From Octopus vulgaris (lineage: Eukaryota): DNA of 64,000 nt. The notes beneath the pieces were generated by a model. The model saw only the letters and a list, made by a program, of their open reading frames with translations. It had not been told where the DNA came from and did no database searches. Shown here piece after piece: positions 15,796 through 59,511 of the stretch. A program made the position numbers and the translations under genes. Within the stretch, counting starts at the first letter, position 1; each line of letters opens with the position of its first letter. Location of the stretch: positions 1,240,001 to 1,304,000 of the forward strand of contig OX597831.1 of assembly GCA_951406725.2 (NCBI GenBank), given 5' to 3'.

Positions 15796-16103
15796 ATCAT
15801 CATCATCATCGTTTAGCGTCCACTTTCCATGCTAGCATGAGTTGGACGGTTCAACTGGGGTCTGGGAAGCCAGAAGGCTGCACCAGGCCCAGTTTGTTCT
15901 GGCAATGTTTCTACGGCTGGATGCCCTTCCTAACGCCAACCATACCATGAGTGTAGTGGGTGCTTTTTACGTGCCAGACGAGTCTGGTAAACGGCCATGA
16001 TCGGATGGTGCTTTTTATGTGCCACCGGCACGGGGGCCAGGCGAGGCTGGCAATGGCCACGAATGGATGGTGCTTTTTACGTGCCACCGGCACGGGGGCC
16101 AGC
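15796..16103 (-). mobile_element. RTE 3'-end copy
   Basis: (CAT)n followed by the reverse complement of the RTE 3' UTR. Confidence 0.9.
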
Positions 16104-16650: not shown

Positions 16651-16695
16651 ATGTTGCTGATACATGTATATACACACATGCATATGTATATATAC

Positions 16696-17264
16696 AAATT
16701 TTTGGTAGTAATGACTTATGTCCCTCTTAGTGTGAGGCTTTTATGTGTAATAATGCCCTCTATATAATATAAATTAATATGTTCAAAAGAAAAAAAAAAA
16801 TTATTTTCGAATTTTTCTCTTATGAGGTTTTTCACGTTAACTACCTGATAATTTCTTGTTAAGATTCCTTATTAAGAAGTTATCCTTAATTGTTAAATTT
16901 ATTCCGAAAAAACTTTTCCTACCCGAAATGCAGTTCGAAAAAGCCCGCCATTTACCGATTATATGATTTATAAACATCTCCATGTGCTTCGTCGGAGAGA
17001 GCAGTTGCCTGTTCGACTTCGACGGTGTTGGTCGTTTACTTATGGTGTGTTCAGAATCAGTTCTACCGATGAGCATAGACGCATTTTTTATGCGGTAAGT
17101 GCGAAATCACAGGTGATATAGGACTAAATTTATTTTTTAAATGTCTTGCTTTGAAAAACTGCATTGGGTATGATTAGTGAAATTTTTGGTAGTAATGACT
17201 TATGTCCCTCTTATTGTGAGGCATTTATGTGTAATAATGCCCTCTATATAATATAAATTAATAT
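16696..17264 (+). mobile_element. Retrozyme-like element: 484-bp unit with 85-bp terminal direct repeat
   Basis: 16696-16780 and 17180-17264 are identical except for 2 bases. The interior is CpG-rich, contains a hammerhead fold and has no meaningful ORF. Confidence 0.7.
17059..17125 (+). ncRNA. Type I hammerhead ribozyme (U4C core variant)
   Basis: Stem I AGTTCTA/TAGGACT; core CCGATGA; stem II GCAT/GTGC capped by CGCAT-TTTTT-ATGCG; GAAA; stem III TCA-CAGG-TGA; TA, with predicted cleavage after 17118. Confidence 0.75.
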
Positions 17265-17339
17265 ATATATTGGGTCATCCCATAAATAATAATGCGATTT
17301 TTTTCAATCACACTAACTAAAAGTTGGAGGTGAACTATT

Positions 17340-17498
17340 GGCGATTTTTTCTTCCATCTTCCTTTTCTATCGGACTTTCCTCTGCTCGAAACATTAAACC
17401 AGCTTTTTTTCCTTCCCTGAGCGTTTGCTAATACTTTACATGTACCACGTCCTCAAGTTTTCTCTTTTGTGTTTGTTCTTCGTTTTTTTTTTTTTATT

Positions 17499-17502
<4 letters not shown>
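17340..17502 (+). mobile_element. Penelope-pLTR-like short repeat (deleted relative of 34365-34526)
   Basis: Shares GCTCGAAAC.TTAAACC..CCTGAGCGT..AATACT..CCACGTCCTC with 34419-34485 and ends in (TA)n. Confidence 0.6.
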
Positions 17503-25747: not shown

Positions 25748-25919
25748 CACCCGCCCTCCCACCCCCACCACGCATGCCGGAAGTTCCTATTCTCTTCCAT
25801 TCCGGGGTTGCTTCCCATGAAGACTGCAAATGCTCTCACCATCCCTACCCCTCCCTACCCCTAGTCTCGACCTATGTAAGGTAATGTTCATACAGTGCAA
25901 AATATGAAAGGCTAGCGTT

Positions 25920-27248
25920 ATGCAGGTTGTACTGAAGGCTACTTTACTACTTCATTTTTTGCACATGAATTCTGCCAAATGCGAGCTTTCTTTTCAGGTA
26001 CACGAAGCTACTGTCCACCGTCCCAGGGTCTCTAGAGCCCATGCCTTCCACACCCTCAGGGTTGGCACCCTCAACGTTGGCACTCTGAAAGGTAGGTCTG
26101 GTGAGATAGTCGAGATGCTTGAACGGAGATGTGTGGATATATGTTGCATGCAAGAAATAAGGTGGAGAGGAGGATCAGCTAGGTTCCTCACAGGCAAGGA
26201 ACGCAGGTACAAGATTTTCTGGGCAGGGAATACTGACGGGGTTGGTGGCGTGGGTATACTTATCGCTGAGAAATGGGTAGATAAAGTAATTGAGGTAATC
26301 AGAGTAAGTGACAGAATACTTAAGATTAGATTAGTGCTTCATCATAGTTTAGCAACCATTATATCAGCCTATGCTCCTCAGTCGGGGCTACCCGATGGAC
26401 AGAAAGACCGATTCTATGACACTCTACTGCAGACTACCTCATTGACGAACGACAGAGACCTTATCTTTGTGGCTGGTGACTTCAATGGTCACGTTGGACG
26501 ACATGCTGGGGGCTTCCATGGCGTACATGGAGGCTACGGCTATGGCTCCCGCAACGAGGAGGGAACCAGGCTGCTGGAGTTCTGCGATGCAAATAATCTT
26601 ATGATTTGCAACACTAACTTCAGGAAACCTACCAGCCACCTAGTCACTTACCAATCGGGCCAACATACCAGCCAAATTGACTACATCCTTACAAGGCAAA
26701 GGGAGAGATGGCTGCTTATAAATGCCAAAACCTTCCCAGGTGAAGAATGTACCCCACAACATAGACTGGTAGTTAGTGACTTTAGGATCAGGACTAGGAG
26801 GACAACCAGAAGACGACAAATATGGAGAAGAAGGATCTGGAAGCTTAAAGATCCTGCAAATGGACAGAGATTTAGGGACATATTACTTGAAGCCTCTGAC
26901 GAAGTAGAAGGGGATAGAGCATCACAGGGGGTAGAAGACAGCTGGACGTTTCTAAGGGACAACCTGCTGAGAGCCACTGACCAGATCTGTGGCTGGTGCA
27001 AAGTCCCCTCTCGACCTAGAATAACGTGGTGGTGGAACAATATTGTAGACAGGGCTATTAGAGAAAAGAGACAGGCTTGGAAGGTCTGGAAAAATGGGGG
27101 TAGCAGGGAATTGTATCAGACTGCCAAAAGAGAAGCTAGGAGACAGGTTTATTTAGCCAGAGGGGAAGCAGATAAGAAAAATTTGCCAATGTTCTGCGCC
27201 GTGAGGACCAAAGACTGGAGGTGTTTCGTGTTGCAAGACAGTGTGTGA
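25920..27248 (+). CDS. RTE ORF, N-terminal part: AP endonuclease (APE/EEP)
   Basis: Motifs GTLNVGTL, CMQEIRW, SAYAPQ, VAGDFNGH, SQIDYIL, PQHRLVV. The frame is lost at the A-run 27177-27181. Confidence 0.93.
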   Translation: MQVVLKATLLLHFLHMNSAKCELSFQVHEATVHRPRVSRAHAFHTLRVGTLNVGTLKGRSGEIVEMLERRCVDICCMQEIRWRGGSARFLTGKERRYKIFWAGNTDGVGGVGILIAEKWVDKVIEVIRVSDRILKIRLVLHHSLATIISAYAPQSGLPDGQKDRFYDTLLQTTSLTNDRDLIFVAGDFNGHVGRHAGGFHGVHGGYGYGSRNEEGTRLLEFCDANNLMICNTNFRKPTSHLVTYQSGQHTSQIDYILTRQRERWLLINAKTFPGEECTPQHRLVVSDFRIRTRRTTRRRQIWRRRIWKLKDPANGQRFRDILLEASDEVEGDRASQGVEDSWTFLRDNLLRATDQICGWCKVPSRPRITWWWNNIVDRAIREKRQAWKVWKNGGSRELYQTAKREARRQVYLARGEADKKNLPMFCAVRTKDWRCFVLQDSV

Positions 27249-29086
27249 GAGAGAATCGTGATGTGGTAGGAGAGAAGTGTGTTCGCATGGAAGATGGTTC
27301 ACTTGCGCTAAATGAGGATGCAAAGAGAGAGGTTTGGAGATGCCACTATGAAAGGTTGCTGAATGAAGAAAATGAATGGGATAAAGAGAGTCTGCCGAAT
27401 GTTGACCCAACAGAGGGACCAGCTATCCGAGTTGATAGTTCTGTGGTAGCTAAGGCAATTAGAAGCATGAAGACAGGGAAAGCCCCAGGCCCATCAGGAA
27501 TCACTGCAGAGATGCTCAAAATGTCTGGTAGTGTCGGCTATAGCCTAGTCACCCATATAGTTAATCAGGTGATACACAAAGGGGTCATACCCAATGACTG
27601 GTGTAGCAGTATAATAGTCAACTGCTACAAAGGTAAAGGTGATGCCCTAGATACAAACAACTACAGAGGTATCAAGCTGTTGGACCAGGTGATGAAGGTT
27701 ACGGAGAGGGTCATAGCCCAACTAATTAGAGAGAGAGTTAGTTTAGATGAGATGCAGTTTGGGTTTGTGCCAGGGAAAAGTACTACTGATGCTATATTCC
27801 TGGTAAGGCAGCTGCAGGAGAAATACCTAGCCAAAGATAAGCCCCTGTACCTGGCTTTTGTTGACATGGAGAAAGCCTTCGACAGGGTCCCCCGATCCCT
27901 TATCTGGTGGGCAATGAGAAAACTAGGGATAGATGAATGGTTAGTGAGAGCTGTGCGGGCCATGTATAGGGACGCCGCTAGTAGGGTGAGGGTTGGAAAT
28001 GAGTACAGTGAAGAATTCCGGGTAGAGGTAGGGGTCCACCAAGGCTCAGTACTCAGCCCCCTCCTATTTATCATAGTTTTCCAGGCAATAACGGAGGAAT
28101 TCAAGACAGGATGCCCTTGGGAGCTCCTCTATGCTGATGACCTTGCTCTAATTGCTGAGTCGCTATCAGAACTGGAGGAGAAGTTTCAGGTGTGGAAACA
28201 AGGATTAGAATCGAAGGGCCTCAGAGTCAATCTAGCTAAAACCAAAGTCGTAATCAGTAGGAAGGTAGACAAATCACAAACACCTTCAGGTAGATGGCCC
28301 TGCTCGATCTGTAGAAAAGGTGTAGGTAGAAACTCTATAAGATGCACCAAGTGTAAGCTATGGACACATAAGAGATGCAGCAATGTCAAAGGAAGGCTAA
28401 CTAGGAAGATGGTTTTTGTATGTGGCAGATGCTCAGGAACAATAAACACTGAAAATGCTCTGAGACCAACTTCTGTCACTTTCCAGGGAGAAAAACTAGA
28501 AATAGTTGATAGTTTCCGTTACCTAGGTGACCAAGTCAGCAGCGGAGGCGGGTGTGCTGAAAGTGTAACTGCTAGAGTAAGAATAGCTTGGGCAAAGTTC
28601 AGAGAGCTCTTACCTCTGCTGGTGACAAAAGGCCTCTCGCACAGAGTGAAAGGCAGACTGTATGATGCGTGTGTACGAACAGCCATGCTACATGGCAGTG
28701 AAACATGGGCCGTGACTGCTGAGGATATGCGTAAGCTCGCTAGAAATGAAGCCAGTATGCTCCGATGGATGTGTAATGCCAGTACTCACACTCGGCAGAG
28801 TGTAAGTACCTTGAGAGAAAAGCTGGACCTAAGAAGCATCAGTTGTGGTGTGCAAGAGAGACGTTTGCGCTGGTATGGTCATGTGGCGAGAATGGATGAA
28901 GATAGTTGTGTGAAAAAGTGCCACACCCTAGCGGTTGAGGGAACCTGTGGAAGAGGCAGACCCAGGAAAACCTGGGACGAGGTGGTGAAGCACGACCTTC
29001 GAACTTTAGGTCTCACCGAGGAAATGACTAGAGACCGAGACCTCTGGAAGTGTGCTGTGCGCGAGAAGACCCGGCAGGACAAGTGA
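27221..29086 (+). CDS. RTE ORF, C-terminal part: non-LTR reverse transcriptase + PHD-like finger
   Basis: Motifs KAPGPSG, NYRGIKLL, QFGF, AFVDMEKAFDRV, GVHQGSVLSPLLF, LLYADDL, FRYLG, LRWYGHVARM, GRPRKTW, plus CSIC..CTKC...H..C..CGRC. Confidence 0.96.
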   Translation: MFRVARQCVRENRDVVGEKCVRMEDGSLALNEDAKREVWRCHYERLLNEENEWDKESLPNVDPTEGPAIRVDSSVVAKAIRSMKTGKAPGPSGITAEMLKMSGSVGYSLVTHIVNQVIHKGVIPNDWCSSIIVNCYKGKGDALDTNNYRGIKLLDQVMKVTERVIAQLIRERVSLDEMQFGFVPGKSTTDAIFLVRQLQEKYLAKDKPLYLAFVDMEKAFDRVPRSLIWWAMRKLGIDEWLVRAVRAMYRDAASRVRVGNEYSEEFRVEVGVHQGSVLSPLLFIIVFQAITEEFKTGCPWELLYADDLALIAESLSELEEKFQVWKQGLESKGLRVNLAKTKVVISRKVDKSQTPSGRWPCSICRKGVGRNSIRCTKCKLWTHKRCSNVKGRLTRKMVFVCGRCSGTINTENALRPTSVTFQGEKLEIVDSFRYLGDQVSSGGGCAESVTARVRIAWAKFRELLPLLVTKGLSHRVKGRLYDACVRTAMLHGSETWAVTAEDMRKLARNEASMLRWMCNASTHTRQSVSTLREKLDLRSISCGVQERRLRWYGHVARMDEDSCVKKCHTLAVEGTCGRGRPRKTWDEVVKHDLRTLGLTEEMTRDRDLWKCAVREKTRQDK

Positions 29087-30203
29087 GTCCACAACCCGTG
29101 GCCTTCTACATGGGATGGAGCCAGCCTACGTATGCATACCTTCCCTTCTTGGGACACAAAACTCTACTTGTGAAGACGTGTTGAGGCAAGTGAGGATCAG
29201 AATCGAAATCGATCAATGGAAATTGCGGATGTGCTACCAGTGCCGGTGGCATGTCGAAACTCTGCTTGTGAAGACCCATTGAGGCAAGTGAGGATCAGAA
29301 TCGAAATCGATCAATGGAAATCGATCAATGGAAATTGCAGATGTGTTACCAGTGCCGGTGGCATGTAAGAGAACCTTCCGTTTCGCGACCGTTGCCAGCA
29401 CCGCCCCGTTTCGTGTTCGTTGCCAGCCTCGCCTGGCCCTCGTGCCGGTGGCACATAAAAAACACCATCCGTTCGTGGCCGTTTGCCAGCTCTGGCTGGC
29501 ACCAGTGCGGGTGGCACGTAAAAAGCACCCACTACACTCACGGAGTGGTTGGCGTTAGGAAGGGCATCCAGCCGTAGAAACACTGCCAGATTTGACTGGG
29601 CCTGATGAAGCCTTCTGGCTTCACAGACCCCAGCAGAACCGTCCAACCCATGCTAGCATGGAAAACGGACGCTAAATGATGATGATGATGATGATGATTG
29701 TACAATTTATGTTGACTAATACACATTTGAATTTGCTTTCATTTTACTGGTGGTTTCAACTAAAGGATTTTTTTAGGAAAAGGTGAATTAAATATCATAC
29801 TGTGTAAAATTGAAAAAACCTTAAATCAAAAGTAAATTTTAGTTTAGAAGGAAACACATACATGCTCAGAGCAAATTAATTAATGTTAAAATAAGTTTAA
29901 TTAAAATTAATTAAAATACATTAAAATTAATTAATGTTAAAAGAAATTTAATTAAAATGTACTCTGGGCATGTACGTTTTTCCTTCTAAAGTAAAATTTA
30001 TTTTTGATTTAAGGTTTTCTTTGATTTTACACAATACGATATTTAATTTTTTATATCATCGTTTCTGAAAAAAAAAAAAAAAAACTCCGTTAGTTGAAAT
30101 GACCAATGAAATGAAACCAAATTCAAATGTGTATCTGTCGATGTATATTATACATTATATTTATACATATAACCTTAATTTGTGTCCCATTTTTAATCAC
30201 AAT

Positions 30204-58452: not shown

Positions 58453-58870
58453 GCCAGAACTTCAAAGTTATTGTCATCCTGCTTCTCATAAAAGTTTAAT
58501 AAACATGTACTCTACAATAAAGCAGAGTAATTATTCAGCTTAATGTTAAATTGTTTTTATTATAACTTGACATAAAAACAAGCAACAATATATATTGCAT
58601 GTATGCTGGCAGAATCATTACTGTGCCGAAAAAATGTTAACCGGCATTTCTTCCAACTCTAGGTTCTGAGTTCAAATTTGGGCTGACAAGATAAGTACCA
58701 GTTGAGTACTGGGGGTAGGGTAATTGGCTTCTCCAAAAATTGCTGGCCTTGTGTCAAAATTTGAAAGCAGTATATATTACATATGTGTGTGTGTGTGCAT
58801 GTAGAGGTAGAGAGAGAGTGAGCTATCCTAGGAATTCACAATAACAGATTTATATTTGTGGGTATTATTA

Positions 58871-59511
58871 CAGCCTCGTCTGGCACCTGTGTCGGTGGCA
58901 CATAAAAACACCATCCGAGCGTGGTCGTCTGCTAGCCTTGTCTGGCACCTGTGTCGGTGGCACATAAAAAAACACCATCCGAGCGTGGTCGTCTGCTAGC
59001 CTTGTCTGGCACCTGTGTCGGTGGCACATAAAAACACCATCCGAGCGTGGCCGTTCGCCAGCCTCGTCTGGCACCTGTGTCGGTGGCACATAAAAACACC
59101 ATCCGAGCGTGGTCGTCTGCCAGCCTTGTCTGGCACCTGTGTCGGTGGCACATAAAAACACCATCCGAGCGTGGCCGTTCGCCAGCCTCGTCTGGCACCT
59201 GTGTCGGTGGCACATAAAAAACACCATCCGAGCGTGGTCGTCTGCCAGCCTTGTCTGGCACCTGTGTCGGTGGCACATAAAAACACCATCCGAGCGTGGC
59301 CGTTCGCCAGCCTCGTCTGGCACCTGTGTCGGTGGCACATAAAATCACCCACTACACTCTCGGAGTGGTTGGCGTTAGGAAGGGCATCCAGCTGTAGAAA
59401 CACTGCCAGATCTGACTGGCCTGGTGCAGCCTTCGGGCTCCCCAGACACCAGTTGAACCGTCCAACCCATGCTAGCATGGAGAGCGGACGTTAAATGATG
59501 ATGATGATGAT
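58871..59511 (+). mobile_element. RTE 3'-end copy with 8 tandem ~62-bp modules
   Basis: TCTGGCACCTGTGTCGGTGGCACATA at ~58879, 58941, 59005, 59067, 59129, 59191, 59254 and 59316, then the standard RTE tail and (GAT)n. Confidence 0.92.

Follow-up and report, generated by a model that had tools for sequence, protein, structure and literature searches.

The window analyzed here comprises 64,000 nucleotides of contig OX597831.1 of Octopus vulgaris, and at positions 16696 to 17264 it harbors a short element consisting of 1.18 head-to-tail monomers of 484 nt. Positions 16696-16780 and 17180-17264 form an 85-nt direct repeat with 98% identity and a spacing of 484 nt, as had been claimed in a preliminary description of this DNA (85-bp repeat with 2 mismatches, about 1.2 copies of a 484-bp unit). 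The unit had also been called non-coding, which agrees with the finding that no open reading frame of at least 100 amino acids overlaps it; a tRNA and a bacterial-type promoter signal were looked for in the unit and neither was found. It had further been called CpG-rich, which is correct for the CpG observed/expected ratio (1.29, vs. 0.29 for the window) but not for the base composition, as the unit is AT-rich with a GC content of 33%. The features assigned to the locus are the following:

16660..16695 (no strand): upstream flank, degenerate TA-rich microsatellite (target)
16696..17264 (+): entire single-arm insertion, 1.18 monomers, with a variable 5' end and a 3' end at family site 1
16696..16780 (+): redundancy copy 1, 85 nt, attributed to a second copying round
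16781..16902 (+): equivalent of the Penelope 'tail' (~120 nt, site 1 to site 2), internal in this copy and with a hairpin
near 16893-16902 (+): position of site 2 in the window copy
16922..16935 (+): conserved long-range helix closing the hammerhead domain, 5' strand
17059..17125 (+): predicted type I hammerhead fold with U4C core, extended stem II and 4-5-bp stem III
17157..17168 (+): same helix, 3' strand; 5' ends of the family accumulate around monomer positions 445-482
17180..17264 (+): redundancy copy 2, terminating at site 1 (about 17250-17264)
17265..17269 (no strand): downstream flank, short (TA)n (target)

A truncation of the window copy at 17265 by a DNA transposon was considered and rejected because this end is the commonest end of the family; the first 65 nt downstream of 17264 gave no other match. 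Further downstream, at 17330-17500, there is an older repeat (~80% identity, 3418 candidates in the genome) that terminates in (TA)n and shows likeness to the 3' end of another Penelope-like family. Elsewhere in the window, a nearly whole LINE occupies 25908-29086 (+), with an endonuclease frame followed by an overlapping reverse transcriptase (RT) frame that carries a PHD-like finger, and we take this LINE to be of the RTE type. Short tandem GC-rich units of about 50-60 nt are found at 15960-16102, 29230-29650 and 58870-59490, and such units recur beside the ends of LINE-like pieces.

All the hammerhead elements that the preliminary description had placed in order at 17059-17125 were located, and they match a type I descriptor, with which both window strands gave this single hit and 100 shuffled windows gave none. 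Stem I (7 bp, including two G-U pairs) is formed by 17059-17065 with 17119-17125, the core CCGAUGA occupies 17066-17072, stem II pairs 17073-17076 with 17099-17102 and is prolonged by a 5-bp extension (17080-17084 with 17090-17094), GAAA is located at 17103-17106, stem III amounts to 4-5 bp, and the cut is predicted after A17118. Core position 4 is a C where the canonical residue is U (U4C), a change that is reported to reduce in vitro activity considerably and yet to leave enough of it for a viroid in vivo (PMC3088659). A search with the Rfam hammerhead models, as proposed in the preliminary description, returned no match for the window copy or for four loci of its family and sister families, and the weak Rfam hits are AT-repeat noise. 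The lowest-energy fold of the isolated motif (-17.5 kcal/mol) is other than the hammerhead fold (-14.2 kcal/mol).

Searches of the genome (2.8 Gb) with three parts of the unit yielded 2353, 1832 and 1434 first-look candidates, totals that are not copy numbers; 40 candidates per search were scored. The 40 scored of the 2353 candidates gave 85 matches, 86-95% identical over the unit, and the copies are dispersed over many chromosome-sized contigs. Relatives had thus been rightly expected, and they include copies longer than one monomer. Two sister families show about 68-80% identity to the unit family and have monomers of about 500 and 486 nt (1616 and 2231 candidates, respectively). All family samples consist of best hits and are therefore biased to long copies near the query. 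For this family in octopus or other cephalopods we found no description in the hammerhead, retrozyme and Penelope literature; it may be catalogued in Repbase, Dfam or supplements, which lie outside this comparison.

Pairing in the hammerhead is maintained throughout the family. In an alignment of 25 distinct rows chosen from 70 hammerhead rows, 97.6% of the cells are paired, and both partners have changed in 5 of 20 pairs, three of which belong to stem I; the covariation score was reached by 0 of 500 shuffles, a control that is inflated by related rows. In the sister families the letters of stems I and II differ and the pairing is kept, and an alignment of all three families shows changes on both sides in 17 of 53 predicted pairs, including the helices that close the hammerhead domain. 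The stem covariation expected in the preliminary description was thereby borne out for stems I and II, by compensatory changes across three families, but not for stem III, which is nearly invariant and so shows no covariation, and which is not formed in the consensus of the three-family alignment. Folded as a circle, the monomer is more stable than all 60 shuffled versions (z = -4.05). These data support the existence of a fairly young, dispersed, non-coding family of the retrozyme type with a putative type I hammerhead that covaries.

A remnant of a local tandem duplication or satellite with a hammerhead-like motif arising by chance would account for the absent Rfam match and for the hammerhead not being the minimum-energy fold. 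The copies, however, are dispersed over many contigs and have fixed ends, their stems covary, and the descriptor found nothing in shuffled windows, and we consider this reading refuted by the dispersed family and its probability negligible.

Of 61 arms sampled, with near relatives over-represented, 31 had the U4C core, and lineages with U4C have therefore continued to spread. U4C as the mark of a youngest subfamily was not borne out, as the nearest-neighbor distances of the two classes are equal (2.2% and 2.1%); on a tree, U4C requires 3-4 changes, whose weakly supported order would point to a change from U to C and a return to U. Two complete hammerheads mark an 'active' element according to Li et al. 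2026 (bioRxiv 10.64898/2026.07.22.740005), and the window copy contains one. As its 85-bp redundancy excludes the hammerhead, it cannot release a monomer by double cleavage, and a copy with one hammerhead and a U4C core would be a product unable to make a circle itself, and in all likelihood a dead end. At 5 of 62 loci a pair of complete hammerheads is present, spaced 476-488 nt and with canonical cores throughout; these loci could be sources.

For the analysis of insertion ends, the loci were reduced to 62 distinct places with 94 arms. Arm lengths range from 33 to 922 nt, and (TA)n stands at the end of 91 of the 94 arms. Their 3' ends lie at site 1 in 55 cases, at site 2, about 120 nt beyond it, in 32 cases, and elsewhere in 7 cases, whereas the 5' ends are variable. 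The free permutation of ends that the preliminary description implied is therefore not supported, as variation is confined to the 5' side and the 3' end has two fixed positions. The family thus shows two features of Penelope-type insertions, variable truncation at the 5' end and partial tandems. An inverted second arm, placed head to head, occurs at 32 of the 62 loci, mostly with 1-6 nt of overlap at the joint. Of the 32 two-armed loci, 25 have one end at each site and 7 carry a single odd end, and no locus uses one site for both arms. After removal of two duplicated loci the rule of one site per arm holds in 24 of 24 cases (P about 6e-8). The same rule holds in 12 of 12 two-armed loci of one sister family (27 loci, three duplicates removed) and, for the other, in 12 of 12 classifiable cases among 14 loci, where the query itself required site 2. 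The tail is accordingly on one arm only, in 24/24 cases in the family and in 12/12 in each sister family. At single-arm loci a TA repeat lies on the 5' side in 24 of 30 cases, and in most of them both flanks are TA; in animal non-LTR retrozymes, target-site duplications, where they occur, exceed 4 bp.

Among the shorter arms, 12 of 30, starting from both sites, stop at monomer positions 445-482, where the closing helix has its 3' strand (P about 0.003 after correction for scanning, with a rough null). This clustering suggests a folded RNA as template.

The template was approached through the 29 arms that are longer than one monomer. Successive rounds within them differ at 66 of 3376 positions (2.0%), as compared to 6.9% between insertions, they share 127 non-majority letters, and recurring differences specific to one round were not found among these arms. 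Similarly, the inverted arms of one insertion differ from each other by 2.0% and from other loci by 6.1% (27 pairs). Every insertion was therefore copied from one monomer sequence that was read repeatedly. The predicted cut is crossed by 71 of 94 arms, in 8 of them twice, and 3 of 90 5' ends lie within 5 nt of it. There is no pile-up at the cut and hence no genomic sign of cleavage; as most arms cross the cut and few start there, the template was either uncut or re-ligated at this point. The preliminary description had proposed slightly more than one round of copying around a circular RNA of about 484 nt. Copies exceeding one monomer with homogenized repeats are in agreement with this proposal, but the 3' end is not free, as the proposal would have it. 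Homogenized repeats that run through the predicted cut fit a circular template without proving one, and a circle would be the simplest explanation for homogenized repeats, crossing of the cut and stops taken together, an explanation that we favor moderately. Contigs from four sequencing runs, three of them guessed to be RNA, reach every one of the 29 bins and contain head-to-tail joints; genomic copies have these joints too, and contigs can show neither circles nor levels.

Alternatively, Penelope enzymes might mobilize the family without any circle, by using a linear multimer, read-through RNA or template jumping on a linear monomer, with a slow or dispensable hammerhead. The lack of a 5' pile-up at the cut and the continued amplification of U4C lineages would be in line with this alternative, as would be the lizard element whose main substrate is uncleaved RNA (PMC11167929) and a sister locus with ~2.3 tandem units in which the first unit is set apart from the other two by a deletion. 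However, the repeats are homogenized in several subfamilies without recurring differences between first and second rounds, which requires that the element be returned to a single monomer at some step; also, compensatory changes hold stems I and II in three families, which suggests selection on the ribozyme fold. We judge the alternative without a circle to be rather unlikely, while still giving it weight, and keep the circular template as the preferred reading. A separate observation concerns the sister family sampled at L106-L135, where 7 of 14 partner arms start between ~10 nt before and 17 nt after the predicted cut; these starts may hint at cleavage in that family, for which the query favored such copies.

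As to the enzyme, GIY-YIG matches were found in the genome (148 of 150 scored), and RT-endonuclease frames of 781 and 775 amino acids are present. The 775-residue family is very young (L159:1275-8957, G000 C3; further loci L138-L157 and L229-L258): it comprises a short upstream frame and the RT/GIY-YIG frame in a 4270-bp tandem unit with dozens of identical copies, and 76 of 76 scored matches are 100% identical over 573-574 amino acids. It also has two (TA)n end sites, here about 30 nt apart (its tail), a hammerhead-like motif whose core has C at position 4, and a distance of about 140 nt from cut to site 1 that is the same in the retrozyme-type unit. The rule of one site per arm holds in 4 of 4 inverted pairs of this family, a control in which 3 of the pairs were picked as adjacent hits on opposite strands. 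Both the 781- and the 775-residue frame show a cysteine motif ahead of the nuclease, of a kind ascribed to the Neptune and Nematis clades (PMC8557442). The 781-residue frame belongs to a second intact Penelope-like family, in which it is accompanied by an upstream frame (L091:1744-6100), and at least 4 further, more divergent Penelope-like families were noted whose 3' ends likewise run into (TA)n.

Mobilization by a Penelope-like enzyme, as suggested in the preliminary description, is thus strengthened by the insertion signature and by a rule of one site per arm that is matched by an autonomous element resident in the same genome. We regard Penelope-driven mobilization of this non-coding family with its predicted hammerhead as highly probable. 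Neither a profile over 45 Penelope-like loci nor a comparison of six 3' regions with shuffles revealed sequence shared between the unit and autonomous elements; the 3' region of one old family scored 30 against a best of 28 in 100 shuffles and was not counted. The assignment of the partner therefore relies on the insertion signature and not on homology.

Alternatively, an autonomous Penelope-like element may have escaped detection, of which the unit would be just the pseudo-LTR end and the copies 5'-truncated stubs. Such an architecture is usual for Penelope (PMC8557442, PMC3846280), frog retrozymes have been likened to pseudo-LTRs (bioRxiv 10.64898/2026.07.22.740005), and the partner search was limited to the Penelope families sampled, in which pseudo-LTR similarity to a resident element was not detected. 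Upstream of the hammerhead, however, every long arm (up to 922 nt) continues into the monomer again. Also, no reading frame leads into the unit: six Penelope-like proteins compared in translation with 150 family loci gave no sense RT/GIY-YIG frame in the unit or upstream of its copies, and the few translated hits near copies are separate neighbors or lie on the opposite strand. A pseudo-LTR origin therefore appears quite improbable, and we return to an element mobilized in trans. Two apparent chimeras were rejected. At L180 a short TA tract separates element and Penelope insertion, which thus shared a target, and at L158 the Penelope neighbor is 1.2 kb away with unrelated DNA between. At L130/L136 (L136:1740-4420), a sister copy is placed head to head with a truncated and broken old Penelope-like element, with neither a TA tract nor shared sequence at the junction; this single case is possibly an insertion from mixed templates.

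Taken together, the family RNA is likely reverse-transcribed in trans into (TA)n by a resident Penelope-like enzyme, and its template is probably a circular RNA of 484 nt. In the mechanism that we propose, rare source loci with two complete hammerheads would be transcribed, and the RNA would be cut and ligated into monomer circles. An RT/GIY-YIG protein, probably dimeric, would nick (TA)n and prime internally at an AU-rich site. Whenever priming takes place on both target strands, one would start from site 1 and the other from site 2 of a single RNA sequence, and the resulting cDNAs would be joined head to head via a few bases of microhomology. Copying would pass through the hammerhead junction, could exceed one full round and would often halt at the closing helix; the window copy would have been primed at site 1 and extended by 569 nt. 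There is precedent for parts of this scheme in the lizard element, whose tail is flanked by two internal RT start sites, with extension of both strands and a predicted dimer (PMC11167929). Counting against the scheme, insertion of the lizard element in vitro had no need for hammerhead cleavage (PMC11167929), and only 1 of 9 frog retrozyme dimers was cleaved in vitro (bioRxiv 10.64898/2026.07.22.740005). A more far-reaching version, which we put forward tentatively and hold to be doubtful, would have the circular hammerhead RNA recognized by its shape without likeness to the helper, a dimer priming both (TA)n strands from two sites ~120 nt apart on one ring, twin priming of this kind explaining all inverted arms and one-sided tails of Penelope, and the slow U4C core serving as an adaptation that keeps the template intact. 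A U4C-type core is common to the window copy and the youngest autonomous element of the genome.

Animal non-LTR retrozymes (Cervera & de la Pena 2020, PMC7229834; Li, Clavereau & Pollet 2026, bioRxiv 10.64898/2026.07.22.740005) are the closest known systems in the comparison made here. The family resembles them in its non-coding, AT-rich monomer of a few hundred nt, its type I hammerhead and head-to-tail redundancy, as well as in its many copies, its strongly folded monomer and the presence of Penelope-like elements in the same genome. Judged by these sequence traits, the family is similar to an animal non-LTR retrozyme, displays the testable features of one at the family level, and is not autonomous. 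The monomer of 484 nt is above the range of 150-450 nt given in PMC7229834 and inside that of 51-972 nt given in the bioRxiv preprint. Unlike animal non-LTR retrozymes, the family occurs mostly as dispersed 0.1-1.9-mers and not in arrays, and part of it has a U4C core; its stem III of 4-5 bp and extended stem II contrast with the 1-2-bp stem III of most animal hammerheads (PMC4209133), and no pseudo-LTR homology was found here, unlike in many frog retrozyme families. A search of the main texts of PMC7229834 and the preprint found no description of two fixed (TA)n 3' ends, inverted arms and a one-sided tail. Circles have been shown for retrozymes of coral, mussel and axolotl (PMC7229834).

For Penelope-like elements, a 5'-truncated copy in inverted orientation has been described, along with a tail of 30-40 bp that is often confined to one end (PMC8557442, PMC3846280). 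The family shares with the endonuclease-containing (EN+) elements Neptune and Nematis (Craig et al. 2021, PMC8557442; Arkhipova et al. 2013, PMC3846280; Frangieh et al. 2024, PMC11167929) the 5' truncation, partial tandems, adjacent inverted copy and tail on one arm, as well as the microsatellite or AT-rich target, a hammerhead near the 3' end and two start sites. It differs from them in that the unit has no reading frame, that the tail is about 100-120 nt long instead of 30-40, and that the hammerhead is full, with a closed stem III, instead of minimal. Plant LTR retrozymes (PMC4918200) are likewise non-autonomous hammerhead elements for which movement via circular RNA has been proposed, but they have a type III hammerhead, LTRs, a primer site, 4-bp duplications and a Gypsy partner.

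Animal retrozymes have already been argued to be non-autonomous Penelope derivatives (bioRxiv 10.64898/2026.07.22.740005), and the case for their mobilization by Penelope has so far been built on co-occurrence, hammerheads in common and similarity to pseudo-LTRs. The window locus alone is an ordinary dead-end copy; its family adds a complete Penelope insertion signature on a retrozyme-type element, matched by an autonomous element in the same genome, and evidence for such mobilization is here unusually direct. It also contributes a tail of 100-120 nt, a strict pairing of the two end positions and a young candidate helper that is present in dozens of identical copies. The rule of one site per arm and the long tail constrain how strands may be primed and whether a hammerhead or a circle is needed, and a direct in vitro test can now draw on a small substrate RNA and on a candidate enzyme.

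Other short hammerhead repeats were encountered in the loci inspected. One, seen at L065 near 190 and at L128:1790-1830, has a CCGACGA core, that is with C at position 4, and adjoins (TA)n, and two more unrelated short repeats with canonical-looking type I cores are located at L091 near 6240 and at L093 near 4044, both on the minus strand. The genome therefore seems to hold several short repeat families that bear hammerheads.
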